From NCBI GenBank assembly GCA_964187785.1, contig OZ076409.1, positions 75,332,001 through 75,396,000 of the forward strand: a DNA stretch of 64,000 nt. The letters run 5' to 3'. Positions 1 through 33,022 of the stretch are shown piece after piece (position 1 is the first letter of the stretch; each line of letters begins with the position of its first letter). The translations under genes and the position numbers were made by a program. Source of the stretch: Amphiscolops sp. MND2022. Its lineage: Eukaryota. Under the pieces are notes generated by a model. The model had not been told where the DNA came from. It worked only from the letters and a program-made list of their open reading frames with translations, and made no database searches.

Positions 1-458
1 TCTTTGCCATTGGGGGAGGGGCCCCGGATGGCCAGTAGTACGGGATAGCTTCCTACCAAATCCAGATGGAAAAAACGTGATTTTGGAAACTAGCCGTCAG
101 AATTTGCTCAAATTTTGCATACGGCTTCCTATAACAATCCTAAGAACTAATCCCTACTGGCATTTTGCCCAAAAAACGCAAAAAGTTGGTCATAATCTTA
201 GTTTTTTGGTCAAAAAATGGCGTTTTTTCGAAAAATTTTTTTTTCAGAGACAATTACTCGTAACTGGTTCACCCAGCGCAAAAACGCCTAGCTGATTTAT
301 TGTTGGGCACTTCATGAGGAGTGCGTATACAAATTTTCGTCCAGATCGGAAAAAAAATGACTAAGTATTAGCCGGAATTCGGACGCATTTTTTCGCAAAT
401 TTTTGAAAACCTAGTCTATCTCTGCCGTTTTTTGCCCAGATTTTTTTCTAGACCCTCT

Positions 459-566
459 CCTAAAGGCCTCCCCTGGCCGGATTACCTCCCAGCAAAACCA
501 TTTGGCCCTAAATACGAAGTTTCAGCGTTCTAGCATTCTCGGGCGAAAAGTTGTGGGACTTAGAAA
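459..566 (+). repeat. Central conserved ~105-bp block of class A units (exemplar)
   Basis: CCTAAAGGCCTCCCCTGGCCG...CCAGCAAAACCATTTGGCCCTAAATACGRAGTTTCAGCGTTCYAGCATTC...GAAAAGTTGTGGGACTT is near-identical across class A units whose flanks differ widely. Confidence 0.9.
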
Positions 567-940
567 AATTTTTTTGAAAACGCAAAATGTGTAAAGTCAA
601 CTTCAGGCCTCCCAAAGTCAAGGAACTTCCACACAACTAGTATTGCAAGTGAATGCATGTGGAAAGTACTCGGATAGACGAGAAAAATGAGCTATTATAA
701 ATCTCTGTAGCTTAACCTGACGTTGACTTATGACAATTTTAGTGTGAGCTTGCTATGTGAGAAAAAAATTCAAAATTGGAAATCGAAGCTAAGTCTCATC
801 CAAAACTCATCGGAACACGTTCAATCCATCCCAGAGCGGTTTAATTCCAGCTATATAATGCAGCAACACTATTCAAGACCATTTGATCCACTTACATTAG
901 TTTTGACACCGTATTATTCATCCGAGAGCACAAAACAGTT

Positions 941-983
941 GAGTACATTCCATCTCCCTTTCGGGGGAGATGAGAATGTACTC
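941..983 (+). other. Internal 43-nt bulged hairpin of class A/F units (exemplar)
   Basis: GAGTACATTC-CATCTCCC-loop-GGGAGATG-A-GAATGTACTC, located ~300 nt upstream of the junction in class A units. Confidence 0.9.
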
Positions 984-1140
984 GCTAAAGTCCAGGTACT
1001 ACAGCCCATATTTGCTTTTATGCGACGCTCTTATGCTAGTGCGCATACTTTTTAATCGTTTAACTGAATTTTCTTCTGTCTGCACTTTGACTTTGACTTG
1101 ACATATAGTGAACGTTTTGTCTTACAACTTACAAATGAGT

Positions 1141-1219
1141 AACGTCAACGCCCCATCCTTGCATCAACGCCCACCGTCCGTGGGCATGCCGAGGCATGCC
1201 CTTCGACGACGTATGCCAA
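1141..1219 (+). other. Universal subterminal box (exemplar): CAACGCC x2 + GGGCATGCC-GA-GGCATGCCC hairpin + TTCGACGACGT
   Basis: Present before all 44 junctions in every size class. The perfect 9-bp inverted repeat lies at 1182-1201, starting ~59-74 nt upstream of CTAG in the copies measured. Confidence 0.93.
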
Positions 1220-1243
1220 GATATATCCCAAGCGCGGTAGCAG

Positions 1244-1250
1244 CTAGGTG
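1244..1250 (+). other. Invariant junction core CTAGGTG (exemplar); putative cleavage/recombination site
   Basis: It is the only sequence shared at the exact point where upstream unit identity switches to downstream unit identity. Its function is inferred. Confidence 0.8.
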
Positions 1251-4200
1251 CCGGGATTTCTATTCGATAAAGTATGTGGCGCGTGTGGGTAGGGTCCCTG
1301 GCGCGCTCTTGGGTATGGTGTTCACCAGCTAGGAAATAGGGGTCGATTTTTCGGGATCTCCTAAACTAGCCACACGATTTGGCTGAAATTTGGCACACGT
1401 ACTCCCCTCGGCACGGTGAAGATGATTTCCTACTGACGTTTTTCCCGCAAAATTTTTTTTGTTGTCCAAAATAACGGTTTTTGGGGTGAAATTTTGATTT
1501 TTTTTTAAATTTTATCTTATATCTCGCCACCGGTTTACGCTAGCGCTTCAAAACCCTGCTAAAGAAAGCTTGCAAACTGTCTCAGGAATGCTGTGTGAAA
1601 ATTTCAGCTCAATCGGACTTAAACTCAGGGAGATATAGCGTTTTTCCGGAGCGGGGGGGTTTCATTTTTCTAACGGTCCAGCTTATCTTAGCCATTTTTT
1701 CGAAAATGTACTCGCCTAAAGACCTCCCCTGGCCGGTTTTATTCCCAGCAAAACCATTTGGCCCTAAATACGGAGTTTCAGCGTTCCAGCATTCCCGGGC
1801 GAAAAGTTGTGGGACTTAGAAAAGTTCAAAAATTTTCAAAAAATTTTTTTTCCGTTTTCCGCCCTCCCCCCCGAGGGGAAAAGACCCCCAACCAGTAATT
1901 TGAGTGAATTCATGTGGAAAGGCCATGTTTAGAGGAGAAAAATCTCGTTTAAATCGTCTTTTTATCTTTATTCAACGTTGACTTATGACGTTTTAAAGGT
2001 GATGTTTGGAGGTGTGAAGCACGTGAAAAGTAAACGTTATGAGTATTTATCTGATCTGAAAGCCATTGAGATGCAACCTGTATTGCTCAAAACGTAATTC
2101 ATATCAGTTTGGTAGTCAATCAACACCCTTTGTTGTCATTTGACATCTTTTTTTGTTGATATAAGAAAAAATTTCGTGTATTTATTCATTTTTTTCTCAT
2201 CAAATAACTTGAAACAGTTGAGTACATTCCATCCCCCCTTCACGGGGGAGATGAGAATGTACTCGCAAAAAGCCCCGAACTACGGCCCTTACCTTCCTGA
2301 GCTACGCAGTATAAAGATTGCATATTGGTTCCGACATTTTCATAGAGTTATATCTTGGTAATCTGTCTGGGTATGCAGAAAAACCAGCACGTGCTTTTTT
2401 ATACCAAGTTGCTCACAACGACATTTATTTTATATCAACGCCCCCATATTTATCAACGCCCCCCGTCCGTGGGCATGCCGAGGCATGCCCTTCGACGACG
2501 TATACCAAGATATGTTCAAGCGCGTTAGCCTAGGTGCCGGGATTTCCATTCGATAAGGAATTCTGCGCGTGTGGGTAGGGCCCCTGGCGCGCTCCTGTGT
2601 TTTGGGTTTTCCTACTCTAAATTCACACATCAGTTATCTCGGATCTCGAAAACTAGCCACACGATTTGGCTAAAATTTGGCACACAGCTCCGTTGGAACA
2701 TTGTAAGAACAAATCCCTACTGACGTTTTGCCCGCTAAACATTTTTTGTTGGTCAAAAATGCGATTTTCCGACAAAATTTTTGACTTTTTTTTCTTTTTC
2801 AACTCATATCTCGCCACAGGGCTACGCTAGCGCTTTGCAACCTATGATCCTTTTTTGTAGGGCATTGCATGTAGAACACGTATGCCAAATTTGGTGGCGA
2901 TCGGACTTGAACTCAGGGAGATATAACGATTTTTTAGGTGCATTTTTTGACATTTTTTGCAATTGCTGATTTATCTTTGCCGTTTTTTGCCCAGATTTTT
3001 TTTGAGACACTCTCCTAAAGACCTCCCCTGGCCGGTTTACCTCCCAGCAAAACCATTTGGCCCTAAATACGAAGTTTCAGCGTTCTAGCATTCCCGGGCG
3101 AAAAGTTGTGGGCTTAGAATAATTTTTTGGAAACGCAAAATGTGTAAAGTCAACTTCAGGCCTCCCAAAGTCAAGGAACTTCCACACAACTAGTATTGCA
3201 AGTGGATGCATGTGGAAAGTACTGGGATAGACGAGAAAAATGAGCTATAGAACGACTCTGTAGCTTAACTTGACGTTGACTTATGATGTTTTGAGTGTGT
3301 GCTTACTAAGGGGTCCGAAATTGAAAATTTTTAAAGAAAATTAATATCGTTAAAAATTCATCGGAATGCCTGCAATATACAGTAGAGCGTGTTCAATTGT
3401 AGCTGACTAATGCATCAACGCTGTTCAAGGTCTTTCAACTCAGTTTCAAATTTTTTTACACTGTATTATCCATCCGAGAGTTCGAAACAGTTGAGTACAT
3501 TCCATCTCCCTCCCGAGGGAGATGAGAATGTACTCGCTAAAGTACAGATACCACGACCCATATTTGTTTCTCTGCGACGCAAACATTTGCTAGTGCACAT
3601 AAATAGTGATCTTTTGACTGAATTCTGTATTTACATTGACGTGACATATGCTGAACGTTCGGTTCTTACAACATACACATGACAAACGTCAACGCCACAT
3701 ACTGTTACCAACGCCCACCGTCCGTGGGCATGCCGAGGCATGCCCTTCGACGACGTATGCCAAATACCTTTGACCGACGCGCACTCTCCCGCTAGGTGCC
3801 GGGATTTCTATTCGTTCGAGTATGTGGCGCGTGTGGGTAGGGCCCCTGGCGCGCTCTTTTATTTCGGGTACACCTACTCCAAATTCACGATGTGATTTCG
3901 ACGATCTCGTAAACTAGCCATACGATTTGGCTGAAATTTGGCACACGTACCCCCCTCGGCACGGTGAAGATGATTCCCTACTGACGTTTTGCCCGCTAAA
4001 CATTTTTTGTTGACCAAAATAACGGTTTTTGGTGGAAAATTTTTGATTTTTTTTAAAATTCATCTTATATCTCGCCACGGGTTTACGCTAGCGCTTCAAA
4101 ACCTTGCTGACGAAAGTTTGCAAACTGTCTCAGGAATGCGGTGTGAAATTTTCAGCTCAATCGGACTTAAACTCGAGGAGATATAGCGTTTTTCCGGAGC

Positions 4201-7200
4201 GGGGGGGTTTCATTTTTCTAACGGTCCAGCTTATCTTTGCCATTTTTTCGAAAATGCACTCGCCTAAAGGCCTCCCCTGGCCGGTTTTATTCCCAGCAAA
4301 ACCATTTGGCCCTAAATACGGAGTTTCAGCGTTCTAGCATTCTCGGGCGAAAAGTTGTGGGACTTAGAAAATTCAAAAATTTTCAAAAAAATTTTTTTTT
4401 GTTATTTGGGCCCCCAAAGTGGGGGAAAGGACCCCCCAACCATTAATTTGAGTGAATGCATGTGCAAAGCCCTTGTATAGAGGAGAAAAATGCCGTTTAG
4501 AACGTCTTTTTATCTTTACTCAACATTGACTTATGACGTTTTGAAGGTGACCGTTAGAAATGGAAAATTGATGTTTTGAGTATTTATCTCATCTGAAAGC
4601 CATTGAGATACAACATGTTTTGCTCAAAACGGGTTTCATTGCAGTTTCGCTGTCTATTAACACCCTTTGGTGACTTTTGACATATTTTTGCTTTTATATA
4701 AAACCAATTTTTTGTGCATTTTTTCTTTTTTTTTCATCTAATATCTTGAAACAGTTGAGTACATTCCATCTCCCTTCCCGGGGGAGATGAGAATGTACTC
4801 GCTAAAAGCCAAGAACTACGGCCAAAACCTTCCCGAGCTACGCACTACAAATATTGCATATGCATGCAGACCTTTTGATACATTTTTATCTTTGTAGATT
4901 GACTGGAAAAACCGAAAACTATGTCCTGATTATACAAAGTTTCCTCACAACGACACATGTTTACGTCAACGCCCCATAGTTCTTATCAACGCCCCCCGTC
5001 CGTGGGCATGCCGTGGCATGCCCTTCGACGACGTGCACCAAAATATATTCGAGCGCGGTAGCCGCTAGGTGCCGGTGTTTTTTTACACAATGGGGGAAGT
5101 TGCGCGTGTGGGGAGGGTCCCTGACGCGCTCCCGGGATTTCGGATTTTTTAACCTTTACGTACCCATCAAAAATTTTGGGATCTCGAAAACTAGCCGTAC
5201 GATTTGGCTGAAATTTGGCACACGTACCCCCCTCGGCACGGTGAAGATGATTCCCTACTGACGTTTTGCTCGCTAAACATTTTTTGTTGACCAAAATAAC
5301 GGTTTTTGGGGTAAAATTTTCAACTTTTTTTAAATTTCATCTTATATCTCGCCACAGGTGCACGCTAGCGCTTCCAAACCTTGCTGACGAAAGGTCGCAA
5401 ACTGTCTCAGGAATGCTGTGTGAAATTTTCAGCTCAATCGGACTTAAACTCGAGGAGATATAGCGTTTTTCCGCAGCGGGGGGGTTTCATTTTTCTAACG
5501 GTCCAGCTTATCTTTGCCATTTTTTCAAAAATGCACTCGCCTAAAGGCCTCCCCTGGCCGGTTTTATTCCCAGCAAAACCATTTGGCCCTAAATACGGAG
5601 TTTCAGCGTTCCAGCATTCCCGGGCGAAAAGTTGTGGGACTTAGAATTTTTCAAAAATTTTCAAAAATTTTTTTTTCCGTTATTTGGGCCCCCAAAGTGG
5701 GGGAAAAGACCCCCCAACCAGTAAAGCAAGTGAATGCATGTGGAAAGCCCTTGTTTAGACGAGAAAAATGGCGTTTAGAACGTTTTTTTATCGTAACTTG
5801 ACATTGACTTTTGTCGTTTTGAAGGTGACCGTTAGATACGGAAAATTGATGTTTTGAGTGTTTATCCCATCTGAAAGCCATTGAGATACAACATGTTTTG
5901 CTCAAAACGTGTTTCATTGCAGTTTCGCTGTCCATTAACACCCTTTGGTGTCTTTTGACGTAATTTTCTTTTCTATAACAACAATTTCTTTGTGTATTTA
6001 TTCATTTTTTTCTCATCAAATAACTTGAAACAGTTGAGTACATTCCATCTCCCTTCCCGGGGGAGATGAGAATGTACTCGCTAAAGGTCAGGAACTACGG
6101 TCTATATCTTCCACAACACAAAAGAGATTGCAAATTGTTTCAGTTTGTCGCAGAAAACTTCTTTTTGCACTCTGTGACTCGACAAAGTGAACGTTTCTTA
6201 CTTACTTTGAATCTCACCATACCACAACTCATCTCTAACGTCAACGCCCCCCACACACATCAACGCCCCCCGTCCGTGGGCATGCCGAGGCATGCCCTTC
6301 GACGACGTATAGCAAAATATATTCGAACGCGGTAGCGGCTAGGTGCCGGGATTTCCATTCGATAAGGAATTCTGCGCGTGTGGGTAGGGCCCCTGGCGCG
6401 CTCCTGTGTTTTGGGTTTTCCTACTCTAAATTCACACATCAGTTATCTCGGATCTCGAAAACTAGCCACACGATTTGGCTGAAATTTGGCACACGTACCC
6501 CCCTCGGCACGGTGAAGATGATTTCCTACTGACGTTTTTCCCGCTAAACATTTTTTGTTGACCAAAATAACGGTTTTTGGGGTAAAATTTTCAACTTTTT
6601 TTAAATTTTATCTTATATCTCGCCACGGGTACACGCTAGCGCTTCCAAACCTTGCTGACGAAAGTTTGCAAACTGTCTCAGGAATGCTGTGTGAAATTTT
6701 CAGCTCAATCGGACTTAAACTCGAGGAGATATAGCGTTTTTCCGGAGCGGGGGGGTTTCATTTTTCTAACGGTCCAGCTTATCTTTGCCATTTTTTCGAA
6801 AATGCACTCGCCTAAAGGCCTCCCCTGGCCGGTTTTATTCCCAGCAAAACCATTTGGCCCTAAATACGGAGTTTCAGCGTTCCAGCATTCCCGGGCGAAA
6901 AGTTGTGGGACTTAGAAAATTTCAAAAATTTTCAAAAATTTTTTTTCCGTTATTTGGGCCCCCAAAGTGGGGGAAAAGACCCCCCAACCAGTAAAGCAAG
7001 TGAATGCATGTGCAAAGCCCTTGTTTAGAGGAGAAAAATGCCGTTTAGAACGTCTTTTTATCTTGGCTCAACGTTGACTTATGACGTTTTGAAGGTGATG
7101 TTTGGAGGTGTAAATCACGTGAATAGTAAACGTTATGAGTATTTATCTGATCTGAAAGCCATTGAGATGCAATATGGTTTGCTCAAAACGTAATTCATGG

Positions 7201-10200
7201 CAGTTTGGCAATCAATCAACACCCTTTGTTGTCGTTTGACATACTTTTTTGTTGTTATAATAAAAATTTTGTGTATTTGTTCATTTTTTTCTCATCAAAT
7301 AACTTGAAACAGTTGAGTACATTCCATCCCCCCTTCCGGGGGAGATGAGAATGTACTCGCAAAAAGCAGCGAATTACGGCCCTTACCTTCCCGAGCTACG
7401 CAGTATAAGGATTACATATTGGTTCCGACATTTTCATAGAGTTAAATCTTGGTAATCTGTCTGGATATGCAGAAAAATCAGCACGTGCCTTTTAATACCA
7501 AGTTGCTCACAACGACAATTATTTTATATCAACGCCCCCATATTTATCAACGCCCCCCGTCCGTGGGCATGCCGAGGCATGCCCTTCGACGACGTATACC
7601 AAGATATACATCGAGCGCGTTAGCCTAGGTGGCCGTGTCTTTTCGACGTGCTTTTGCATTGAGGAGTGGGTAGGGCCCCGCGACGACCTAGAAGAATTGG
7701 ATGCTCACCGAAACGTGCAGAATTCTACGAGATCTCATAGTTTGAGCCATACGATTTTTCTGAAATTTGGCATGTGGCCTGGAATTGGTGAGTAGGTAAA
7801 ACGTGTAGAAGGTAATTTTTCCCAAATTCCACTGTGAGAGGAGATATGGGCAAATAACGGACCCAAAAATGGCAAAAATGCACATTTTTCAACTTTGTCA
7901 GCCAATATCTCTTTTCCAGGTGCCCGTAGCGTTCCGCACGTGGACATCAATATTGCTCAGCGCTGTTGGAGGAGTGCGTGGACAAATTTTGGTTTAAATC
8001 GGACTTAAACTTGACGAGAAATTAACGGTTTTTTGGGCGTTTCCGGGGTAAATTTTTTAACGGTCCAGCTTATCTTTGCCATTTTTTCGAAAATGTACAT
8101 GCCTAAAGGCCTCCCCCTGGCCGAATTTACTCCCAGCAAACCCATTTGGCCCTAAATACGGAGTTTCAGCGTTCCAGCATTCCGGGGCGGAAAGTTGTGG
8201 GACTTGGAAAAATTTCAAAATTTTTTCAAAAATTTTTTTTCCCGTTTTCCGGGCCCCCAATGAAGGGGAACGACCCCCCAACCAGTATTTTGAGTGAATT
8301 CATGTGGAACGCCCATGTTTGGAGGAGAAAAATGCCGTTTAGTACATCTTTTTATCTTAACTTGACATTGACTTATGACGTTTTGAATGTGATGTTAGGA
8401 TATATGAAGCATGTTAAAAGTTGGAGTTTTGAGACTTTATCTCATCGGAAAACCATTGAGATACAAGCAGTTTTGCTAAAAACGATTTTCATTGTAGATT
8501 AGCAGAGTATTAGTACACTTTGATGTCATTTGAGTATTTTTTTCTTCTATATAATAACTGTTTTTATGTATTTATTCCAATTTATCTCATCTCATTTTAA
8601 CATCAAGCAGTTGAGTACATTTCATCTCCCTTTCGGGGGAGATGAGAATGTACTCGCTAAAAACCTAATGCTATGGCGCCAATGTTTGGATGGGAAGTTT
8701 TCTATGCTTTGAAAAAAGTTATTTTTAATTACTTGATTTTTTAAAACAATAATTAACATGAAGTACATTACTTGCTCCTACTACTACCACGATACATCTC
8801 TAACGTCAACGCCCCCTGCTTGCATCAACGCCCCATCGTCCGTGGGCATGCCGAGGCATGCCCTTCGACGACGTATGCCAAATGCCCAGTGCCACGCAGT
8901 CTTTCCCCGCTAGGTGGCCGTGTCTTTTCGACGTGCTTTTGCATCGAGGAGTGGGTAGGGCCCCGCGACGACCTAAAAGAATTGGATGCTCACCGAAACG
9001 TGCAGAATTCTACGAGATCTCATAGTTTGAGCCATACGATTTTTCTGAAACTTGGCATGTGGCCTGGAATTGGTGAGTAGGTAAAACGTGTAGGAGGTAA
9101 TTTTTCCCAAATTCCATTGTGAGAGGAGATATGGGCAAATAACGGACCCAAAAATGGGGAAAATGCACTTTTTTCAAGTTTGTCAGCCAATATCTCATTT
9201 CCACGTGCCCGTAGCGTTCCGCACGTGGACATCAATATTGCTCAGCGCTGTTGGAGGAGTGCGTGGACAAATTTTGGTTTAAATCGGACTTAAACTTGAC
9301 GAGAAATTAACGGTTTTTTGGGCGTTTCCGGGGTAAATTTTTTAACGGTCCAGCTTATCTTTGCCATTTTTTCGAAAATGTACATGCCTAAAGGCCTCCC
9401 CCTGGCCGAATTTACTCCCAGCAAACCCATTTGGCCCTAAATACGGAGTTTCAGCGTTCCAGCATTCCGGGGCGGAAAGTTGTGGGACTTGGAAAAATTT
9501 CAAAATTTTTTCAAAAATTTTTTTCCCGTTTTCCGGGCCCCCAATGAAGGGGAACGACCCCCCAACCAGTATTTTGAGTGAATTCATGTGGAACGCCCAT
9601 GTTTGGAGGAGAAAAATGCCGTTTAGCACATCTTTTTATCTTAACTTGACATTGACTTATGACGTTTTGAATGTGATGTTAGGATATATGAAGCATGTTA
9701 AAAGTTGAAGTTTTGAGTCTTTATCTCATCGGAAAACCATTGAGATACAAGCAGTTTTGCTAAAAACGATTTTCATTGTAGGTTAGCACAGTATTAGTAC
9801 ACTTTGATGTCATTTGAGTATTTTTTTCTTCTATATAATAACTGTTTTTATGTATTTATTCCAATTTATCTCATCTTTTAACATCAAGCAGTTGAGTACA
9901 TTTCATCTCCCTTTCGGGGGAGATGAGAATGTACTCGCTAAAAACCTAATGCTATGGCGCCAATGTTTGGATGAGAAGTTTTCTATGCTTTGAAAAAAGT
10001 TATTTTTAATTACTTGATTTTTTAAAACAATAATTAACATGAAGTACATTACTTGCTCCTACTACTACCACCATACATCTCTAACGTCAACGCCCCCTGC
10101 TTGCATCAACGCCCCATCGTCCGTGGGCATGCCGAGGCATGCCCTTCGACGACGTATGCCAAATGCCCAGTGCCACGCAGTCTTTCCCCGCTAGGTGCCG

Positions 10201-13200
10201 GGATTTCTATTCATTAAAGTATGTTGCGCGTGTGGGTAGGGCCCCGTGGCGCGCTCTTGTGTCCCTGTTCTCATAACTGCAATTTCCGGCAGCATTCTGA
10301 GCGATTTTCTAAACTATCCATACGATTCGGCTGAAATTTGGCACACGTACCCCCCTCGGCACGGTGAAGATGATTTCCTACTGACGTTTTTCCCGCAAAA
10401 TTTTTTTTGTTGTCCAAAATAACGGTTTTTGGGGTAAAATTTTGAATTTGTTTTAAATTTTATCTTATATCTCGCCACGGGTTTACGCTAGCGCTTCAAA
10501 ACCCTGCTAAAGAAAGCTTGCAAACTGTCTCAGGAATGCGGTGTGAAATTTTCAGCTCAATCGGACTCAAACTCGGGGAGATATAGCGTTTTTCCGGAGC
10601 GGGGGGGTTTCATTTTTCTAACGGTCCAGCTTATCTTTGCCATTTTTTCGAAAATGCACTCGCCTAAAGGCCTCCCCTGGCCGGTTTTATTCCCAGCAAA
10701 ACCATTTGGCCCTAAATACGGAGTTTCAGCGTTCCAGCATTCCCGGGCGAAAAGTTGTGGGACTTAGAAAAGTTCAAAAATTTTCAAAAAAATTTTTTTT
10801 CCGTTTTCCGCCCTCCCCCCCTAGGGGAAAAGACCCCCCAACCAGTAATTTGAGTGAATTCATGTGGAAAGGCCATGTTTAGAGGAGAAAAATGCCGTTT
10901 AGAACGTCTTTTTATCTTGGCTCAACGTTGACTTATGACGTTTTGAAGGTGGTGTTTGCAGGTGTAAAGCACGCGAATAGTAAACGTTATGAGTATTTAT
11001 CTGATCTGAAAGCCATTGAGATGAATATGGTTTGCTCAAAACGTAATTCATGGCAGTTTGGCAATCAATCAACACCCTTTGTTGTCGTTTGACATACTTT
11101 TTTGTTGTTATAATAAAAAATTTTGTGTATTTATTCATTTTTTTCTCATCAAATAACTTGAAACAGTTGAGTACATTCCATCCCCCCCTTCCGGGGGAGA
11201 TGAGAATGTACTCGCAAAAAGCACCGAACTACGGCCCTAACCTTCCCGAGCTACGCAGTATAAGGATTACATATTGGTTCCGACATTTTCATAGAGTTAA
11301 ATCTTGGTAATCTGTCTGGATATGCAGAAAAACCAGCACGTGCTTTTTTATACCAAGTTGCTTACAACGACAATTATTTTATATCAACGCCCCCATATTT
11401 ATCAACGCCCCCCGTCCGTGGGCATGCCGAGGCATGCCCTTCGACGACGTATACCAAGATATTCCCGAGCGCGTTAGCCTAGGTGCCGGGATTTCTATTC
11501 GATAAGGAATTCTGCGCGTGTGGGTAGGGCCCCTGGCGCGCTCCTGTGTTTTCGGTTTTCCTACTCCAAATTCACACCCCAGTTATCTCCGATCTCGTAA
11601 ACTATCCATACGATTTGGCTGAAATTTGGCACACGTACCCCCCTCGGCACGGTGAAGATGATTTCCTACTGACGTTTTTCCCGCTAAACATTTTTTGTTG
11701 ACCAAAATAACGGTTTTTGGGGTAAAATTTTCAACTTTTTTTAAATTTTATCTTATATCTCGCCACGGGTACACGCTAGCGCTTCCAAACCTTGCTGACG
11801 AAAGTTTGCAAACTGTCTCAGGAATGCTGTGTGAAATTTTCAGCTCAATCGGACTTAAACTCGAGGAGATATAGCGTTTTTCCGGAGCGGGGGGGTTTCA
11901 TTTTTCTAACGGTCCAGCTTATCTTTGCCATTTTTTCGAAAATGCACTCGCCTAAAGGCCTCCCCTGGCCGGTTTTATTCCCAGCAAAACCATTTGGCCC
12001 TAAATACGGAGTTTCAGCGTTCCAGCATTCCCGGGCGAAAAGTTGTGGGACTTAGAAAATTTCAAAAATTTTCAAAAATTTTTTTTCCGTTATTTGGGCC
12101 CCCAAAGTGGGGGAAAAGACCCCCCAACCAGTAAAGCAAGTGAATGCATGTGCAAAGCCCTTGTTTAGAGGAGAAAAATGCCGTTTAGAACGTCTTTTTA
12201 TCTTGGCTCAACGTTGACTTATGACGTTTTGAAGGTGATGTTTGGAGGTGTAAATCACGTGAATAGTAAACGTTATGAGTATTTATCTGATCTGAAAGCC
12301 ATTGAGATGCAATATGGTTTGCTCAAAACGTAATTCATGGCAGTTTGGCAATCAATCAACACCCTTTGTTGTCGTTTGACATACTTTTTTGTTGTTATAA
12401 TAAAAATTTTGTGTATTTGTTCATTTTTTTCTCATCAAATAACTTGAAACAGTTGAGTACATTCCATCCCCCCTTCCGGGGGAGATGAGAATGTACTCGC
12501 AAAAAGCAGCGAATTACGGCCCTTACCTTCCCGAGCTACGCAGTATAAGGATTACATATTGGTTCCGACATTTTCATAGAGTTAAATCTTGGTAATCTGT
12601 CTGGATATGCAGAAAAATCAGCACGTGCCTTTTAATACCAAGTTGCTCACAACGACAATTATTTTATATCAACGCCCCCATATTTATCAACGCCCCCCGT
12701 CCGTGGGCATGCCGAGGCATGCCCTTCGACGACGTATACCAAGATATACATCGAGCGCGTTAGCCTAGGTGCCGGGATTTTCTATTCGACAAGTTTGCGC
12801 GCCTTGGGGAGGGTCCCTTTGCGCGCTTTAAGATCCAGGTGTTTCCAACTCCTAAACGGGCATGTGATTTCGACGATCTCCTAAACTAGCCATACGATTT
12901 GGCTGAAATTTGGCACACGTACCCCCCTCGGCACGGTGAAGATGATTCCCCACTGACGTTTTGCTCGCTAAACATTTTTTGTTGACCAAAATAACGGTTT
13001 TTGGGGTAAAATTTTCAACTTTTTTTAAATTTCATCTTATATCTCGCCACGGGTTTACGCTAGCGCTTCCAAACCTTGCTGACGAAAATTTGCAAACTGT
13101 CTCAGGAATGCTGTGTGAAATTTTCAGCTCAATCGGACTTAAACTTGGGGAGATATAGCGTTTTTCCGGAGCGGGGGGGTTTCATTTTTCTAACGGTCCA

Positions 13201-16200
13201 GCTTATCTTTGCCATTTTTTCGAAAATGCACTCGCCTAAAGGCCTCCCCTGGCCGGTTTTATTCCCAGCAAAACCATTTGGCCCTAAATACGGAGTTTCA
13301 GCGTTCTAGCATTCCCGGGCGAAAAGTTGTGGGACTTAGAAACTTTCAAAAATTTTCAAAAAATTTTTTTCCGTTATTTGGGCCCTCAAAGTGGTGGAAA
13401 AGACCCCCCAACCAGTAAAGCAAGTGAATGCATGTGGAAAGCCCTTGTTTAGACGAGAAAAATGCCGTTTATAACGTCTTTTTATCTTAACTTGACATTG
13501 ACTTTTGTCGTTTTGAAGGTGACCGTTAGATACGGAAAATTGATGTTTTGAGTGTTTATCCCATCTGAAAGCCATTGAGATACAACATGTTTTGCTCAAA
13601 ACGTGTTTCATTGCAGTTTCGCTGTCCATTGACACCCTTTGGTGTCTTTTGACGTAATTTTCTTTTCTATAATAACAATTTCTTTGTGTATTTATTCATT
13701 TTTTTCTCATCAAATAACTTGAAACAGTTGAGTACATTCCATCTCCCTTCCCGGGGGAGATGAGAATGTACTCGCTAAAGGTCAGGAACTACGGTCTATA
13801 TCTTCCACAACACAAAAGAGATTGCAAATTGTTTCAGTTTGTCGCAGAAAACTTCTTTTTGCACTCTGTGACTCGACAAAGTGAACGTTTCTTACTTACT
13901 TTGAATCTCACCATACCACAACTCATCTCTAACGTCAACGCCCCCCACACACATCAACGCCCCCCGTCCGTGGGCATGCCGAGGCATGCCCTTCGACGAC
14001 GTATAGCAAAATATATTCGAACGCGGTAGCAGCTAGGTGCCGGGATTTCTATTCGATAAAGTATGTGGCGCGCCTTGGGTAGGGTCCCTTGCGCGCTCTT
14101 GGGTATGGTGTTCACCAGCTAGGAAACAGGGGTCGATTTTTCGGGATCTCCTAAACTAGCCACACGATTTGGCTGAAATTTGGCACACGTACCCCCCTCG
14201 GCACGGTGAAGATGATTTCCTACTGACGTTTTTCCCGCAAAATTTTTTTTGTTGTCCAAAATAACGGTTTTTGAGGGAAAATTTTGAACTTTTTTTAAAT
14301 TTCATCTTATATCTCCCCACCGGTTTACGCTAGCGCTTCAAAACCCTGCTAAAGAAAGCTTGCAAACTGTCTCAGGAATGCGGTGTGAAATTTTCAGCTC
14401 AATCGGACTTAAACTCAGGGAGATATAGCGTTTTTCCGGAGCGGGGGGGTTTCATTTTTCTAACGGTCCAGCTTATCTTAGCCATTTTTTCGAAAATGTA
14501 CTCGCCTAAAGACCTCCCCTGGCCGGTTTTAATCCCAGCAAAACCATTTGGCCCTAAATACGGAGTTTCAGCGTTCCAGCATTCCCGGGCGAAAAGTTGT
14601 GGGACTTAGAAAATTTCAAAAATTTTCAAAATTTTTTTTTCCGTTTTCCGCCCTCCCCCCCTAGGGGAAAAGACCCCCCAACCAGTAATTTGAGTGAATT
14701 CATGTGGAAAGGCCATGTTTAGAGGAGAAAAATCCCGTTTAAATTGTCTTTTTATCTTTATTCAACGTTGACTTATGACGTTTTGAAGGTGATGTTTGGA
14801 GGTGTGAAGCACGTGAAAAGTAAACGTTATGAGTATTTATCTGATCTGAAAGCCATTGAGATGCAATCTGTTTTGCTCAAAACGTAATTCATATCCGTTT
14901 GGTAGTCAATCAACACCCTTTGTTGTCATTTGACATCTTTTTTTGTTGATATAAGAAAAAATTTTGTGTATTTATTCATTTTTTTCTCATCAAATAACAT
15001 GAAACAGTTGAGTACATTCCATCCCCCCTTCACGGGGGAGATGAGAATGTACTCGCAAAAAGCCCCAAACTACGGCCCTTACCTTCCTGAGCTACGCAGT
15101 ATAAAGATTGCATATTGGTTCCGACATTTTGATAGAGTTATACCTTGGTAATCTGTCTGGGTATGCAGAAAAACCAGCACGTGCTTTTTTATACCAAGTT
15201 GCTTACAACGACAATTATTTTCTATCAACGCCCCCATATTTATCAACGCCCCCCGTCCGTGGGCATGCCGAGGCATGCCCTTCGACGACGTATACCAAGA
15301 TATGTTCGAGCGCGTTAGCCTAGGTGCCGGGATTTCCATTCGATAAGGAATTCTGCGCGTGTGGGTAGGGCCCCTGGCGCGCTCCTGTGTTTTCGGTTTT
15401 CCTACTCCAAATTCACACCCCAGTTATCTCCGATCTCGTAAACTATCCATACGATTTGGCTGAAATTTGGCACACGTACCCCCCTCGGCACGCTGAAGAT
15501 GATTCCCTACTGACGTTTTGCTCGCTAAACATTTTTTGTTGACCAAAATAACGGTTTTTGGGGTAAAATTTTCAACTTTTTTTAAATTTCATCTTATATC
15601 TCGCCACGGGTACACGCTAGCGCTTCCAAAACTTGCTGACGAAAGCTTGCAAACTGTCTCAGGAATGCGGTGTGAAATTTTCAGCTCAATCGGACTTAAA
15701 CTCGGGGAGATATAGCGTTTTTCCGGAGCGGGGGGGTTTCATTTTTCTAACGGTCCAGCTTATCTTAGCCATTTTTTCGAAAATGTAATCGCCTAAAGGC
15801 CTCCCCTGGCCGGTTTTACTCCCAGCAAAACCATTTGGCCCTAAATACGGAGTTTCAGCGTTCCAGCATTCCCGGGCGAAAAGTTGTGGGACTTAGAAAA
15901 TTTCAAAAATTTTCAAAATTTTTTTTTCCGTTATTTGGGCCCCCAAAGTGGGGGAAAAGACCCCCCAACCAGTAAAGCAAGTGAATGCATGTGCAAAGCC
16001 CTTGTTTGGACGAGAAAAATGCCGTTTAGAACGTCTTTTTATCTTGGCTCAACGTTGACTTATGACGTTTTGAAGGTGATGTTTGGAGGTGTAAAGCACG
16101 TGAATAGTAAACGTTATGAGTATTTATCTGATCTGAAAGCCATTGAGATGCAATATGGTTTGCTCAAAACGTAATTCATTGCAGTTTGACAATCAATCAA

Positions 16201-16643
16201 CACCCTTTGTTGTCGTTTGACATATTTTTTTGTTGTTATAATAAAAAATTTTGTGTATTTATTCATTTTTTTCTCATCAAATAACTTGAAAGAGTTGAGT
16301 ACATTCCATCCCCCCCTTCCGGGGGAGATGAGAATGTACTCGCAAAAAGCACCGAACTACGGCCCTTACCTTCCCGAGCTACGCAGTATAAGGATTACAT
16401 ATTGGTTCCGACTTTTTCATAGAGTTATATCTTGGTAATCTGTCTGGATATGCCGAAAAATCAGCACGTGCCTTTTAATACCAAGTTGCTCACAACAACA
16501 ATTCTTTTATATCAACGCCCCCATATTTATCAACGCCCCCCGTCCGTGGGCATGCCGAGGCATGCCCTTCGACGACGTATACCAAGATATGCCATAACGC
16601 GTTAGCCTAGGTGCGGGGGGGTAACCCCTACAAAGATATTGGA

Positions 16644-16667
16644 GGATTCGGGTAGGGTCCTGAATCC
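16644..16667 (+). other. 5' subterminal hairpin with conserved (T/G)AGGG(T/C) loop (exemplar)
   Basis: GGATTCGGG-TAGGGT-CCTGAATCC. Equivalent stems of different sequence lie at 1279-1306, 31788-31809, 33055-33076 and 52895-52914. Confidence 0.85.
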
Positions 16668-18122
16668 GATCTTAGTACCGCCAGCTATCAGTAGAAAATT
16701 TCCCTCAAAAACCGGGATCTCGGGAACTAACCGTAGGATTTGAAAGTTGGAGCGGCCCCCACCAGATTTTCCCGAATAGATCGCCCCCCACCGGGCTCCA
16801 TACCCCGGAAAATTTTTTTTTGGCCACACGGGCGACAGTTAGGGGGTCATTTTAGGGGTAAAATTCATATTGGTCCATATAACTTTTTTCCTGTTGGTTT
16901 AAAAGTTTGGGAACCCTGCTAAAGGTTTTTCGACCATGTTGCAAGGGCTCCGGAGGTGCAAACCAAATTTTTCTATCTTGAAGCTATCTCCAAGTACCCC
17001 CCCGCTCAAACCGTTATTTTTCCGGAAACGCAGGTTTTTGACCCGGAAGGAGTCGTCTGAGCGCGGGGTCGTTAGGTGATGTTTTGGGGACGGCCTTGAG
17101 ACAAAGTGGGGGACATGTAGTTTACCAACCTCAATTTACCCCCCGGACGGGAAATGACCGTTATATGAGCGGAAAAAATGCCCCCCTTCACGTTTTACCG
17201 CTATTTCCGGTGTGAAGGTGTGGGAGAGCGCGTCGGGTGCCATATATCAAAAGTAGGTTTAGACAAAGACCTATCGGAAACATGTGGTTTGGGACCCCCT
17301 GACCCAACCCGTTAGCGGGAAATGGGGCTTCCGCCTCCTTTTTTTACGGTTAAAAACGGAAAATGGGCATTGAGGGGTAAATATCTCGTGAACGCGTGGA
17401 GCTACGGTGTCCTTCACTACTACAAGTTTTCATACCCATGATATGGTGCCTTCAGGGGGGCAAACAGATTTCCGCTATCTATCACTGTTACGGACTTGGC
17501 CCCCCAGCCTAACCGCTATGTGACCGGAAATGTCACTTTTTGAGCCCAAAGGGTCGGTCCCAGCCAGGGAACGTTAGATAACTTTTTGTAGTACTCATTG
17601 AGACGAGTTGGGGGACATAGTTTCAGTCACCCCCCGTTACCCCTTGTGACCGGAAATGACCGTTATGTGGGTAAAATTGGGATTTTTGTACTTTTTGAAG
17701 GGCAATTAGGTGCGGAAGGAGTGGTAATAGGTGCTTGGACACTATATGATGGAATGGAGGACGTGAGGCGAACATTCAGACATAACCGTTATGTTGACCC
17801 TAAAGTCCCCCTGGTACCGTAAACGACCGGAAATGGTCAAATTTTGTGTCTATTGGGTACAAATGTTTGGTATTTTGTAAATAAAAGTATCTATTAGGTG
17901 TTTCGACGGTCTGCAGTAGTGAACATAGTCATGAAACCTTGTCGGGGGGTAACGGTATATAGCACCGGAAGTCCAAAACGTTAGAGACGGGATAGGTTTT
18001 TCCGTTTTAAAATGTCTTTCGGCGTACTTTTGTCAACTAATATGGAATATTTTGTAAAATTAAAGTTTTTCCATATAGTTTCAGAGACTCCCAAACCTCA
18101 AACAACATAACCGTTACCTTAT

Positions 18123-18166
18123 GATAGCCTTTCAAGTTGGCCTGGTGTCAACTTGGAAGGGCTATC
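18123..18166 (+). other. Internal 44-nt hairpin of class B/E units (exemplar)
   Basis: GATAGCCTTTCAAGTTGGC-CTGGT-GTCAACTTGGAAGGGCTATC. Homologues occur in all B units and at 34059 and 53908. Confidence 0.9.
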
Positions 18167-20556
18167 CTTCAAAAATCATTGATCAAGTGTGTTTTTGGGT
18201 ATGTTTGAATCATTTTAGAATCAATTAGAGCTTCAAGAAATGTTTGCCAACGACAAAAACTATGTCGCGATGATTCCGTTATTAGAGTAATAGTTAACAA
18301 AATATTGATTAAGTTGATTTTTTACATTTCAAAAGTGTCCTAAAAGCCAGAAAACCTCTTTACCAAACAAATGGTATTGATTGGATTGTATATAACAGGT
18401 AATAAAAGTTCAAATTGATTATTACGTTTTATTATGTGAGCTGAAACGTCATATTATAGTTTAATTAACGTCAACGCCACATACTTTACACCAACGCCCA
18501 CCGTCTGTGGGCATGCCGAGGCATGCCCTTCGACGACGTATACCAAATACATTTCATATCTACACCCACCCGCGGTAGCAGCTAGGTGCGGGGGGGTAAC
18601 CCCAACAAATATATTGGAGGATTCGGGTAGGGTCCTGAATCCGATTTTAACTCTAATAGCTATCGATAGGAAATCTTGCAAAAATTTCGGGATCTCGTGA
18701 TCTAACCATAGGATTTTAAAGTTGGAGCGGCCCCCACCAGATTTTCCGAAAATTAGCGCCCCCCACCGGTTTCCATACCCCGGAAAATTTTTTTCTGGCC
18801 ACACGGGCGACCGTTAGGGGGTCATTTTAGGGGTAAAATTCATATTGGGCCACATAACTTTTTTTCTGTTGATTTAAAACTTTGGAACCCTGCTAAAAGT
18901 TTCTTGACCGTGTTGCAGGGGCCCCGAAGGTCCAAACCAAATTTTTCTATCTTGAAGCTATCTCCAAGTACCCCCCCGCTCAAACCGTTATTTTTCCGGA
19001 AACGCAGGTTTTTGACCCGGAAGGAGTCGTCTGAGCGCGGGGTCGTTAGGTGATGTATTGGGGACGGCCTTGAGACGAAGTGGGGGACAAGTAGTTTGCC
19101 AACCTCAATTTACCCCCCGGACGGGAAATGACCGTTATATGAGCGTGAAAAATGCCCCCCTCCACGTTTTACCGCTATTTCCGGTGTGAAGGAGTGGGAG
19201 TAGCGCGTCGGGTGTTATATAACAAAAGTAGGTTTAGACAAGGACCTATCGGAAACATGTAGTTTGGGACCCCCTGGACCAACCCGTTAGCGGGAAATGG
19301 GGCTTCCGCCTCCTTTTTTTAGTGCTAAAACCGTAAAATGGGCATTGAGGGGTAAATATCTCGTGAACGCGTGGAGCAATCGTGTCCATCACTACTACAA
19401 GGTTTCATACCCATGATATGGTGCCTTCAGGGGGGCAAACAGATTTCCGCTATCTATCACCGTTACCGACTTGTCCCCCCAGCCTAACCGCTATGTGACC
19501 GGAAATGTCACTTTTTGAGCCCAAAGGGTCGGACCCAGCCTGGGAACGTTAGGTAACTTATTGCAGTACTCAATGAGACGAGTTGGGGGATATAGTTTCA
19601 GTCAACCCCCGTTACCCCTTGGGACCGGAAATGACCGTTATGTGGGTAAATTTGCAATTTTTATACTTTTTCAAGTGTATTTAGGTGCGGAAGGAGTGGT
19701 AATAGGTGCTTGGACACTATATGAGGTAAGGGAGGACGTGAGGCGAGCATTCGGAAATAACCGTTATGTTGACCCTAAAGTCCCCCTAGTACCGTAAACG
19801 ACCGGAAATGGTCAAATTTTGTGTCTATTGGGTACAAATGTTTTGTATTTTGTAGATAAAAGTATCTATTAGGTGTTTCGACGGTCTACAGTAGTGAACA
19901 TAGTCATGAAACCTTGTGGGGGGTAACGGTATATAGCACCGGAAGTCAAACCGTTGGAGACAGGATAGGTTTTTTGGTTTTAAAATGTCTTTCGGCGTAA
20001 TTTTTTCGACTCTTGTGGACTATTTTTAAAAATTAAAGTTTTTCCATATAGTTTCAGAGACTCCGAAACCTCAACCAACATAACCGTTACCTTATGATAG
20101 CCTTTCAAGTTGGCCTGGTGTCAACTTGGAAGCGCTATCCTTCTGAAATCGTTAATCAAGAGTGTTTTTGGGTAGGTATATATTGCATTAGTACCAATTA
20201 GAGCTTCATCAACAGTGTACCAACGACAAAAACTATGCCGTCATGATTCCGTTATTAGAATCATAGTGAGCAAATTGTTGAAAAAAATGGTTTTTTCCAT
20301 ACAAAATGTGTCCTAAATGCCAGGAAACCTATTTACCTAACAAATGGTATTAATTGGAATGTTTGTAACAGATTTATAAAAGTTCAAATTGAATATTACA
20401 TTTCATTATGGAAGCTGAAACGTCATATTTTAGTTTAATTAACGTCAACGCCACACACTTTACATCAACGCACACCGTCTGTGGGCATGCCGAGGCATGC
20501 CCTTCGACGACGTATGACAAATCCTTATCAAACGACGCCCGTACATGCCGGGCTAG

Positions 20557-21844
20557 GTGCCGGGATTTCTATTCGATAAAGTATGTGGCGCGCCTTGGGT
20601 AGGGTCCCTTGCGCGCTTTTGGGTATGGTGTTCACCAGCTAGGAAATAGGGGTCGATTTTTCGGGATCTCCTAAACTAGCCACACGATTTGGCTGAAATT
20701 TGGCACACGTACTCCCCTCGGCACGGTGAAGATGATTTCCTACTGACGTTTTTCCCGCAAAATTTTTTTTGTTGTCCAAAATAACGGTTTTTGGGGGAAA
20801 ATTTTGAACTTTTTTTAAATTTCATCTTATATCTCGCCACGGGTTTACGCTAGCGCTTCAAAACCCTGCTAAAGAAAGCTTGCAAACTGTCTCAGGAATG
20901 CGGTGTGAAGTTTTCAGCTCAATCGGACTTGAACTCAGGGAGATATAGCGTTTTTCCGGAGCGGGGGGGTTTCATTTTTCTAACGGTCCAGCTTATCTTT
21001 GCCATTTTTTCGAAAATGCACTCGCCTAAAGGCCTCCCCTGGCCGGTTTTATTCCCAGCAAAACCATTTGGCCCTAAATACGGAGTTTCAGCGTTCCAGC
21101 ATTCCCGGGCGAAAAGTTGTGGGACTTAGAAAAGTTCAAAAATTTTCAAAAAAAAATTTTTCCGTTTTCCGCCCTCCCCCCCTAGGGGAAAAGACCCCCC
21201 AACCAGTAAAGCAAGTGAATGCATGTGCAAAGCCCTTGTTTAGAGGAGAAAAATGCCGTTTAGAACGTCTTTTTATCTTGGCTCAACGTTGACTTATGAC
21301 GTTTTGAAGGTGATGTTTGGAGGTGTAAAGCACGTGAATAGTAAACATTATGAGTATTTATCTGATCTGAAAGCCATTGAGATGCAATATGGTTTGCTCA
21401 AAACGTAATTCATGACAGTTTGGCAATCAATCAACACCCTTTGTTGTCGTTTGACATACTTTTTTGTTGTTATAATAAAAAATTTTGTGTATTTATTCAT
21501 TTTTTTCTCATCAAATAACTTGAAACAGTTGAGTACATTCCATCCCCCCCTTCCGGGGGAGATGAGAATGTACTCGCAAAAAGCACCGAACTACAGCCCT
21601 TACCTTCCCGAGCTACGCAGTATAAGGATTACATATTGGTTCCGACATTTTCATAGAGTTAAATCTTGGTAATCTGTCTGGGTATGCAGAAAAACCAGCA
21701 CGTGCTTTTTTATACCAAGTTGCTCACAACGACATTTATTTTATATCAACGCCCCCATATTTATCAACGCCCCCCGTCCGTGGGCATGCCGAGGCATGCC
21801 CTTCGACGACGTATACCAAGATATGTTCGAGCGCGTTAGCCTAG
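20557..21844 (+). mobile_element. Single 1288-bp class A unit between class B units
   Basis: Its 5' portion is nearly identical to units starting at 1248, 14037, 55555, 58110 and 61943. It is bounded by CTAGGTG at 20553 and 21841. Confidence 0.65.
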
Positions 21845-30800: not shown

Positions 30801-31752
30801 CCCGTTACCCCTTGGGACCGGAAATGGCCGTTATGTGGGTAAAATTGGGATTTTTGTACTTTTTGAAGGGCAATTAGGTGCGGAAGGAGTGGTAATAGTT
30901 GCTTGGACACTATATGATGGAAGGGAGGACGTGAGGCGAACATTCGGACATAACCGTTATGTTGACCCTAAAGTCCCCCTGGTACCGTAAACGACCGGAA
31001 ATGGTCAAATTTTGTGTCTATTGGGTACAAATGTTTGGTATTTTGTAAATAAAAGTATCTATTAGGTGTTTCGACGGTCTGCAGTAGTGAACATAGTCAT
31101 GAAACCTTGTCGGGGGGTAACGGTATATAGCACCGGAAGTCCAAACCGTTAGAGACGGGATAGGTTTTTTCGTTTTAAAATGTCTTTCGGCGTACTTTTG
31201 TCAACTAATATGGAATATTTTTTAAAATTAAAGTTTTTCCATATAGTTTCAGAGACTCCCAAACCTCAAACAACATAACCGTTACCTTATGATAGCCTTT
31301 CAAGTTGGCCTGGTGTCAACTTGGAAGGGCTATCCTTCAAAAATCGTTGATCAAGTGTGTTTTTGGGTATGTTTGAATCATTTTAGAATCAATTAGAGCT
31401 TCAAGAAAAATTTGCCAACGACAAAAACTATGTCGTGATGATTCCGTTATTAGAGTAATAGTTAACAAAATGTTGATAAAGTTGATTTTGTACATTTCAA
31501 ATGTGTCCTTTATGCCAGAAAACCTTTTTACCAAACTAATGATATTGATTGAATTGTATATAACAGGTAATAAAAGTTCAAATTGAATATTACGTTTCAT
31601 TTTGTAAGCTGAAACGTGATATTATAGTTTAATTAACGTCAACGCCACATACTTTACATCAACGCCCACCGTCTGTGGGCATGCCGAGGCATGCCCTTCG
31701 ACGACGTATACCAAACACCAATATATCTACACCCACCCGCGGTAGCAGCTAG
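21845..31752 (+). mobile_element. Five ~1.98-kb class B units
   Basis: Lengths 1994, 1993, 1974, 1973 and 1974. The first two carry an extra ~20 nt (GGGTTGAATYGTCATAATAT near 23266 and 25260). Confidence 0.65.
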
Positions 31753-33022
31753 GTGGCCGCGTCTTTTTGATGGACTTTTATCCTTGAGGCGCGGGTAGGG
31801 TCCTGCGCCGAGCTGGTGAAAATATACTACGTCCAAATCGCCCGTTCCGGAAACGATCTCAAAACTGGCCCGTACGATTTTCCTGAAACTTTGCATGTGG
31901 CCCCCAATTGGCGAGCAATGAAAAAGTGTAGGAGGCCATTTTTCCCAAATTCCATTGTGAGAGGAGATATATGAAAAAAACGGACCCCGAAATGACGAAA
32001 ATTTCACTTTTTGACCATTAATGGGACATTATCTCCCCGGACAATGCTCGGAGCAAAATTTGTCAGGACCCAAACCTACAGCAGACTGTTAGAGGAGTAC
32101 GCACAGTAAGTTTGAAGGAAATCTGATAATCACATGTTGAGAAATTAACGATTTTTTGACAAAATTTTTGCATTTGCAGTCTATCTCTGCCGTTTTTTGC
32201 CCAAAATTTTTTCGAGACCCTCTCCTAAAGACCTCCCCTGGCCAGTTTACCTCCCAAAAAAACCATTTGGCCCTAAATACGAAGTTTCAGCGTTCTAGCA
32301 TTCCCCAGTGAAAAGTTATGGGACTTAGAACTTTTTCAAAAATTTTCAAAATTTTTCTAAAAAAGTTCAGGCCTCCCAAAGTGAAGAAACTTCCACACAA
32401 CTAGTATTGCAAGTGAATGCATGTGGAAAGCCCTGCACTTGACGAGAAAAATGCCGTTTAGAACGTCTTTTTATCTTAACTTGATGTTGACTTATGATCT
32501 TTTGAGTAGCGTATAACACGTGATCACAGTAGTGAAAATCCTAATTTTCAAAAATTTTCAAACAATAACGCATGAAAAGAACCTGGAAAAGGTTCCGATG
32601 GGTCAGTTGGGATGTCTGAAGCATGTGTACATTTCCGTAGTGTATAGCGGATGTATTTGAGACTTATTAGAAATTGTGATAAATTTTATACAAGTCTTTG
32701 TTTCTCTTAGAATCTTATGCAGTTGAGTACATTCCATCTCCCTCTCAGGGGAGATGTGAATGTACGTTTGCCAAATGCCTTGTAAAGCTCACAATTTTGA
32801 TGGATTCAAATAACTAAACATGTGTGATTTGCGTTTGCCGAACCACTGCGACAAAATATCCTAAATCTATAGCGAGATTGTATGGTTTTTGTCTTTAGTG
32901 TTTCGTCTTGTATAGCCGACTTCCACATCCAAATATCAACGCCCGCCGTCCGTAGGCATGCCGAGGCATGCCTTTCGACGACGTATGCCAAATACCTAAT
33001 GCCACGCTGTCATTATCGCTAG
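31753..33022 (+). mobile_element. Divergent 1270-bp class A unit
   Basis: It has the central block and GAGTACATT hairpin but a largely unique interior. Its terminal hairpin carries a compensatory A-T pair at 32954/32973. Confidence 0.6.

Follow-up and report, generated by a model that had tools for sequence, protein, structure and literature searches.

Introduction

A window of 64,000 nt from the genome of Amphiscolops sp. (the whole stretch of DNA analyzed here, positions 75,332,001 to 75,396,000 of contig OZ076409.1) carries 44 matches, all on the + strand, to a palindromic 20-mer, GGGCATGCC-GA-GGCATGCCC, if up to two mismatches are allowed, versus none in each of 100 shuffles. The question is what is repeated together with this palindrome and what keeps it nearly unchanged. 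An earlier note, made from the letters of the sequence only, described it as a terminal hairpin maintained as structure and assigned it either to the recognition or termination signal of a mobilizing enzyme or to the core of a structured RNA. Below the palindrome is referred to as H3 and two further hairpins of the same repeated units as H1 and H2.

Organization of the array

The window is occupied by a single array of units arranged head-to-tail in one orientation (Table 1), their lengths ranging from 1262 to 2197 nt. Mean identity between units is 66%, and they fall into 12 families at the 80% identity level and into 20 families at 90%. Units of the long block share little with the main family beyond their ends. 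None of 18 open reading frames chosen from the window gave a Pfam match above the cut-off, no transposase was found, and the units look non-coding.

Several features of the unit interiors deserve recording on their own. Lengths are rather uniform, 34 of 43 units being shorter than 1450 nt and most falling between 1262 and 1290 nt, though families differ by 20-35%. Eleven units (u14, u15, u17-u21, u23, u26, u27, and u37; 16611-41325 and 52858-54238) contain four to seven copies each of the motif ACCGGAA(G/A)T, which resembles an ETS-factor site. The 1.97-kb family possesses an internal direct repeat of about 170 nt with 70% similarity (16997-17167 and 17500-17669). Around CCATTTGGCCCTAAATAC (1700-1820, and 50-200 in the metagenomic relative L001 described below) lies a block that both the main family and L001 conserve well, and it shows no covariation. 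CpG depletion, considered as a background property, was discarded (observed/expected ratio 0.94-1.0).

Table 1. Coordinates of the array, its units and their elements within the window
Feature	Positions	Strand	Remarks
Array of 43 complete and two partial units, extending past both window ends	1..64000	+	
Sample unit u02, complete (1286 nt between seams)	1248..2533	+	
Long-unit block, seven units of ~1.97-1.99 kb and one of 1.29 kb	16611..31752	+	
Seam CTAGGTG, invariant in 44/44, crossover inside 7 nt	1244..1250	+	
Variable tail, in linkage with the unit 5' of it	1212..1243	+	without consistent hairpin
H1, hairpin near the 5' end; cap GGG(T/G)AGGG(T/C/G)CC fixed, stem variable and in part covarying	1279..1306	+	
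H2 class 1, ~19-bp hairpin, located in most units some 190-210 nt 5' of H3	941..983	+	z -8.96
H2 class 2, equal size, different compensating sequence	18123..18166	+	z -5.92
H3 palindrome, GGGCATGCC-GA-GGCATGCCC	1182..1201	+	stem 8-9 bp; 19/20 match to RRRCWWGYYY x2
H3 loop variant, GA to GT	5004..5023	+	
H3 outer-pair variant A..T, also in L001	32954..32973	+	
Full frozen subterminal block with invariant GTC..GT 5' and TTCGACGAC 3' of the stem	1170..1211	+	per-position counts, 44 copies
Two TCAACGCC motifs, spacing 18-19 nt, 5' of the block	1145..1173	+	family D2
Decayed internal H3 copy in unit u26, ~200 nt past H2, no seam behind	38881..38900	+	
Decayed internal H3 copy in unit u27	41060..41079	+	stem still fully pairable

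Seams and the order of units

Units meet at the heptamer CTAGGTG, which occurs exactly 44 times in the window and never on the - strand. Its division into CTAG|GTG is used here as an assumption. Similarity matrices computed for the segment upstream of H3 and for the tail behind it correlate with r of 0.57-0.74 over 44 loci and of 0.66-0.77 over the 29 of 44 loci not belonging to the long-unit block; within a unit, head and tail are linked as well (r 0.69). Across the seam the same correlation is 0.11 (44 loci) or -0.02 (29 loci), with columns -1 and +7 being independent (adjusted mutual information 0.01). At the 90% cut the 44 junctions represent 39 distinct adjacencies versus 40.2 expected at random, while 43 units comprise only 26 head-tail combinations versus 39.3. 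In 35 pairs of units the ends are 95% or more alike, and no dimer is duplicated; u31 and u33, for example, are 99.8% alike, their respective neighbors only 69% and 63%. Since linkage is lost only at the seam and near-identical units have unlike neighbors, units were copied singly and joined within 7 nt. The order is not fully random, neighbors being more alike than by chance (0.755 vs. 0.712, p 0.0002; P 0.025 for adjacency at the 80% cut), and this excess comes mostly from the run of 2-kb units. As a separate observation, the base at +10, three bases past the seam, is G in 44/44 cases though its neighbors vary, and T in L001.

Head-to-tail layout, chimeric combinations of heads and tails and local clustering of one family are also what an ordinary satellite homogenized by unequal exchange, or a mis-assembled repeat, may display. 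Exchange inside units does occur, head and tail types of the main family being recombined within units (e.g. one head with several tails). Nevertheless, unequal exchange or mis-joins would break linkage in the longest stretch that units share, the block of 40 nt, where it holds, and not in 7 nt, where it breaks; duplicated dimers are missing, and the same layout is seen in L001. In sequencing run X1, sequence at least 99% alike was present in 8 of 37 records, which also speaks against mis-assembly. Comparison of this run with positions 1-20000 yielded one contig with a u07-type tail joined to a u02-type head at the seam; a similar join is present at 58106, outside the compared part, and the X1 join was therefore not counted as evidence. 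Among the sequencing runs listed, one contains a small share of matching sequence and none is of RNA, which speaks neither for nor against expression. The satellite or mis-assembly reading is already largely refuted, and we rate it as extremely improbable.

Bacterial integron arrays resemble this one in that cassettes are shuffled singly and meet at a core of 7 nt. The units might be cassettes moved by a tyrosine recombinase with Crypton-like or integron-like logic, CTAGGTG serving as the strand-exchange overlap and the block around H3 as an arm-type site, so that circles enter any seam. The invariant core is exactly 7 nt with free flanks, the same heptamer flanks every unit in direct repeat, and the different core of L001 suits homology between partners better than a fixed sequence. 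Tyrosine recombinases use spacers of 6-8 bp and Cryptons carry short direct repeats of 4-6 bp at both ends and no terminal inverted repeats (TIRs) (PMC3212892); the units here have a shared core of 7 nt and no TIRs. Columns flanking the core, however, vary independently and comprise no conserved inverted binding pair, and the inverse core CACCTAG is encountered nowhere, so no attC-like or DIRS-ICR-like element is present. Moreover, the covariation in H1 and H2 suggests that a single-stranded stage exists. Unlike Cryptons and integron arrays, the cassettes are gene-less, have no inverse core folding onto the crossover, and no recombinase was seen. In sum we consider a tyrosine recombinase unlikely. 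Polinton AG/CT ends and an attC-like fold were rejected by inspection, no pairing or motif being conserved across families.

Conserved subterminal block

H3 is exact in 42 of 44 copies and consists of two self-complementary GGCATGCC octamers with a period of 10 bp. The distance from H3 to CTAG is bounded to 39-54 nt in all 44 copies. Conservation is wider than the hairpin, spanning from -12 to +30 around H3 (about 40 nt, 44 copies): 16 of 18 stem positions, 9/9 positions of the 3' flank and 5/6 before the stem are invariant, with TTCGACGAC unchanged in every copy. This block is retained between units that are about 70% alike or cannot be aligned internally. The TCAACGCC motif is found in 41/43 units. 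A second terminator hairpin just before CTAG was considered and rejected, since the tails fold no better than background (mean z -0.01, with 0 of 34 distinct tails below -2).

The folding model gives an 8-bp stem with a CGAG loop rather than a 2-nt loop, which the program is unable to form. Extension of the stem through CGTC/GACG, where parts of the conserved flanks supply the pairing, is possible in 43/44 copies; at 54162 it is broken, both outer partners being altered and the pair not restored. Thus, the number of hairpin copies, the loop variant, the compensatory A..T pair and the extensible stem all proved to be as the earlier note had claimed. Its contrast between a conserved hairpin and divergent flanks is correct for the hairpin and fails for the adjoining flanks, which are conserved too over the whole block. 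An alternative GCCCAC/GTGGGC stem, said there to overlap H3 in many copies, is indeed intact in 22/44; as a conserved, mutually exclusive switch it was rejected, the predicted pairing probability being 0.003 for DNA and 0.000 for RNA (main stem 0.995 and 0.999, respectively).

Whether structure or sequence is maintained is a different matter. Functional copies of H3 contain a single both-sides change (A..T at 32954), and this counts as one inherited event because it is common to L001, which matches best the same unit that has this change. Since the 3' flank varies no more than the stem does, sequence is what is held in H3. H3 is therefore frozen as sequence, while the upkeep as structure proposed previously is weakly supported; besides, a both-sides change cannot separate a hairpin from a two-fold symmetric double-stranded protein site.

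Two relic copies, at 38881 and 41060, were detected at E of 2e-12 and 1e-9; they are absent from the earlier note. Each has 3/20 positions changed, a pace similar to that of its own flanks. As these relics without a downstream seam have decayed, the frozen state is limited to blocks with a seam behind them. Their pooled changes comprise three G-T-compatible, one compensatory and one breaking, which is suggestive of structure but few in number; the copy at 41060 still folds and that at 38881 does not. In both u26 and u27 the decayed former end is followed by about 200 nt closing in a fresh block, so that these units look like what 3' read-through predicts. Location of the block 39-54 nt before the unit boundary, its frozen state across divergent units and its decay without a seam uphold the proposal of a recognition or termination signal of a mobilizing enzyme.

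The symmetry of the palindrome suggests one more interpretation, possible though doubtful in our estimate: the 20-mer may be kept as a double-stranded site for a tetramer of the host p53/p63 family and not as a hairpin. Such a candidate site would drive or gate transcription or mobilization across the seam downstream and is compatible with mobile units. A p53 response element is composed of two RRRCWWGYYY half-sites 0-13 bp apart. With the half-site as given in PMC2807882, 43/44 copies have one mismatch to the doubled consensus and one copy has two, all with zero spacer, and no other site of the window comes within two mismatches. The same source lists GGGCATGCCC as the tightest half-site of zebrafish p53 and half-site positions 1, 2, 9, and 10 as tolerant, the changes in terminal copies all being at 1 or 10. 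Each arm is itself palindromic, therefore the 20-mer represents four head-to-head pentamers, the layout of the p53 family, whereas a hairpin does not need quarter-sites of this kind. A random 9-bp stem with a 2-nt loop would fit equally well about once in 2700 (calculated by hand and post hoc), and the A..T pair is explained by a p53 site as well as by a hairpin. On the other hand, p53 allows more variation than the copies show, and the invariant non-consensus G10, GTC..GT and TTCGACGAC are left unexplained. Compared with a p53-family response element, the predicted site matches 19/20 consensus positions, with the flanks and the non-consensus base being invariant too.

Hairpins H1 and H2 and the folding of whole units

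The two other hairpins behave differently from H3 and show more covariation. The cap motif of H1 is present in 41/43 units, the other two having another hairpin; in u26 and u27 a T-rich/A-rich hairpin stands in place of H1. In 16 chosen rows 78% of H1 stem cells are paired, and both-sides changes affect 6/11 pairs; H1 folds no better on the + strand than on the - strand. H2 was found in 43/43 units (class 1 in 34 and class 2 in 9). In its outer stem 97% of cells are paired in 18 chosen rows with both-sides changes at 5/10 pairs, and the score was reached by none of 500 shuffles. These changes mostly separate the two classes and hence correspond to few events; even so, H2 is better evidence of structural selection than H3. 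A conserved bulge in H2 was discarded, its position differing between the classes. Two distant inverted pairs were also noticed: ATATCTC/GAGATAT (1519-1525 with 1631-1637), for which the main family shows some changes on both sides, and a 17-nt pair (1375-1391 and 1599-1615).

Prevalence of G-T over A-C mismatches on the + strand (13 vs. 3 in the three hairpins, the structures having been chosen from + folds), real covariation in H1 and H2 and the AG|GT dinucleotides within the seam are what one might expect if units travel as RNA, like SINEs, retrozymes or back-spliced circles, with AG|GT as the processing or target site. The features usual for such elements are not observed. Rfam gave 0 matches at the gathering threshold in 64 kb and, in 10.9 kb, sub-threshold chance matches only (E up to 2-5); ARAGORN detected no tRNA; no poly(A) or simple tail is present at unit ends, and 5' truncation affects 0/43 units, which leaves the units without the 3' tail, 5' truncation and tRNA-derived head expected of SINE and non-LTR elements. 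Consensus folding of 14 representative units revealed no extended covarying fold over the unit and favored the - strand (-86.9 vs. -74.5 on +). Furthermore, positions +4 to +6 after GT are unlike the donor consensus, and L001 contains GAG where YAG is expected. Movement as RNA appears therefore improbable, and the suggestion that H3 is the core of a structured RNA is not supported, neither an Rfam match at gathering nor an extended covarying fold having been found. An HDV-like ribozyme, a spliced-leader gene and a tRNA primer site were likewise put aside by inspection, no pairing or motif being conserved across families.

A metagenomic relative and the search for a partner

A pattern scan of metagenomes with the stem left free returned the sole locus L001, about 70% identical, which has the same layout and the seam CGAGGTG instead of CTAGGTG. 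In its region 796-950 the upstream part is closest to u22 and the downstream part to u23, repeating the order found in the window at 31753-34410; chance, old adjacency or compatibility of ends may be responsible. Viral contigs gave 0 matches in four pattern scans and prokaryotic genomes 0 pattern matches; plasmids and phages gave no BLAST match. No autonomous partner emerged from pattern scans of viral, prokaryotic and metagenome sequence.

Comparison with known mobile elements

The units fail defining tests of Helitron1 and Helitron2 (PMC11417382), and thus are not filed as members of either. From the features of Helitron1 they possess, if the cut is as assumed, the 3' CTRR terminus (CTAG in 44/44 seams, CGAG in L001). 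The 5' TC is missing from the 7-nt core on either strand; the hairpin, expected about 10-12 nt before the 3' end, is H3 lying 39-54 nt from CTAG; and in place of insertion between A and T without duplication all 44/44 junctions within the array are unit-to-unit. As for Helitron2, a hairpin is located at each end (a hairpin at the H1 position and H3, in 44/44). Asymmetric TIRs of 11-18 nt are not found, the best inverted match between the first 100 and the last 150 nt being 8.5 on average (maximum 10, one mismatch allowed) versus 8.9 for mismatched pairs, and instead of a T|T or T|C target the flanks of the seam are G/C-rich.

Partial likeness is nevertheless traceable to several groups. With Helitron1 and HLE1 the units share 3' CTAG after a palindrome rich in GC, ends that are conserved around unrelated interiors, the lack of TIRs and traces of 3' read-through; unlike Helitron1, where the palindrome lies about 11 nt from the end, here the distance is 39-54 nt, units join their own kind, the stem is frozen, and H1 and H2 are additional (PMC4778049, PMC11417382). 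Similarly to Helitron2/Helentron HINEs and FoHeli, hairpins occupy both ends, and the 3' palindrome is about 40-55 nt from the end, and for those elements self-insertion has been reported; their asymmetric TIRs, T-rich target and T-rich ends are absent here (PMC4067079, PMC5148889). Head-to-tail arrangement and target preference as a source of tandems resemble tandem Helitron arrays and dimers of transposable elements (PMC12628747, 10.1101/158386). The described Helitron arrays and element tandems are expansions of one element, often truncated (PMC12628747 on Xiong 2016, 10.1101/158386, PMC12001565), unlike the 12-20 families found here, full-length, copied singly and placed in near-random order. 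Helitrons have also been reported in centromeric or chromosome-end regions, the present layout not being described in the text covered (PMC13404089, PMC13085455, 10.64898/2026.09.17.752431). Replitrons, another group with HUH enzymes, have short direct end repeats, one orientation, insertion just after RG and a palindrome at the right end; the right ends of Replitron-1 are fuzzy with variable duplications (PMC10288648), unlike the exact seams here, and no Rep gene was seen in the units. The shared heptamer contains AG as well as GG and may be taken for such a direct repeat, which is not diagnostic.

A proposed rolling-circle explanation

The best explanation in our opinion, which we hold with about even confidence, is that a rolling-circle transposase (HUH, Helitron-like), encoded outside the units, uses the block as its sequence-specific signal for both end and target. 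With a similar, evenly balanced degree of belief the units may be regarded as non-autonomous, self-targeting elements that an HUH enzyme mobilizes in trans. This reading proceeds from the observed discreteness and single orientation of the units, crossover confined to the seam, three hairpins per unit and decay of those copies of the block that have no seam behind them. The enzyme, the strand, the circle and the position of the cut we infer. The enzyme would nick the + strand at a seam; on the displaced + strand H1, H2, and H3 would fold; the block would stall or position the enzyme for cutting at the next seam; the unit would then close into a circle with the seam regenerated, and the circle would insert at an existing seam. 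If every family uses the block as its terminator and also as its landing mark, then a frozen H3 alongside H1 and H2 drifting by compensation would follow, and so would near-random growth of the array.

Parallels exist among characterized elements. Helraiser has 3' CTAG with an upstream hairpin, forms circles with joined ends and shows 3' read-through (PMC4778049), and Helitron2/HINE elements carry hairpins at both ends, their 3' palindrome lying 38-51 or 38-60 nt away from the terminus (PMC5148889, PMC4067079). Some observations oppose the rolling-circle explanation. The stem of Helraiser can be swapped for another sequence with about 90% of activity kept (PMC4778049), therefore a plain terminator should not be frozen. 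All 43/43 units start with GT, not TC, which does not fit Helitrons, and the assignment to the + strand is at odds with the preference of the 14-unit folding for the - strand and with the equal folding of H1 on both.

Significance

Taken alone, a subterminal hairpin that a non-autonomous transposon conserves is commonplace. What is unusual is an exact-seam, multi-family, singly shuffled array combined with the p53-like symmetry of its end signal. The literature covered, to which Repbase, Dfam, most subscription journals and supplements did not belong, contains no description of the motif or of such an array, and the family may already be catalogued. A far-reaching interpretation, which we put forward as speculative and rather unlikely, is a new class of eukaryotic self-targeting cassettes, in which at least 12 gene-less families would use one end signal, move as single units and dock only at mutual seams, the signal doubling as a candidate p53-family site. 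If true, this would be an integron-like shuffled array in a eukaryote, and its end signal could tie mobilization to DNA damage or to the germline.

The usual models of how a transposon turns into a long tandem array give uniform or truncated copies of one element; the array described here bears the record of many families inserted as single units, all at the same exact seam. It also offers a natural substrate for the search and assay of the enzyme, as the donor end, the target and the circle junction are predicted to be the same sequence. A self-targeting eukaryotic element, if real, would represent a safe-harbor strategy and a possible tool for site-specific integration; and if the signal is a p53-family site as well, a host stress sensor would be linked to the end of a DNA transposon.
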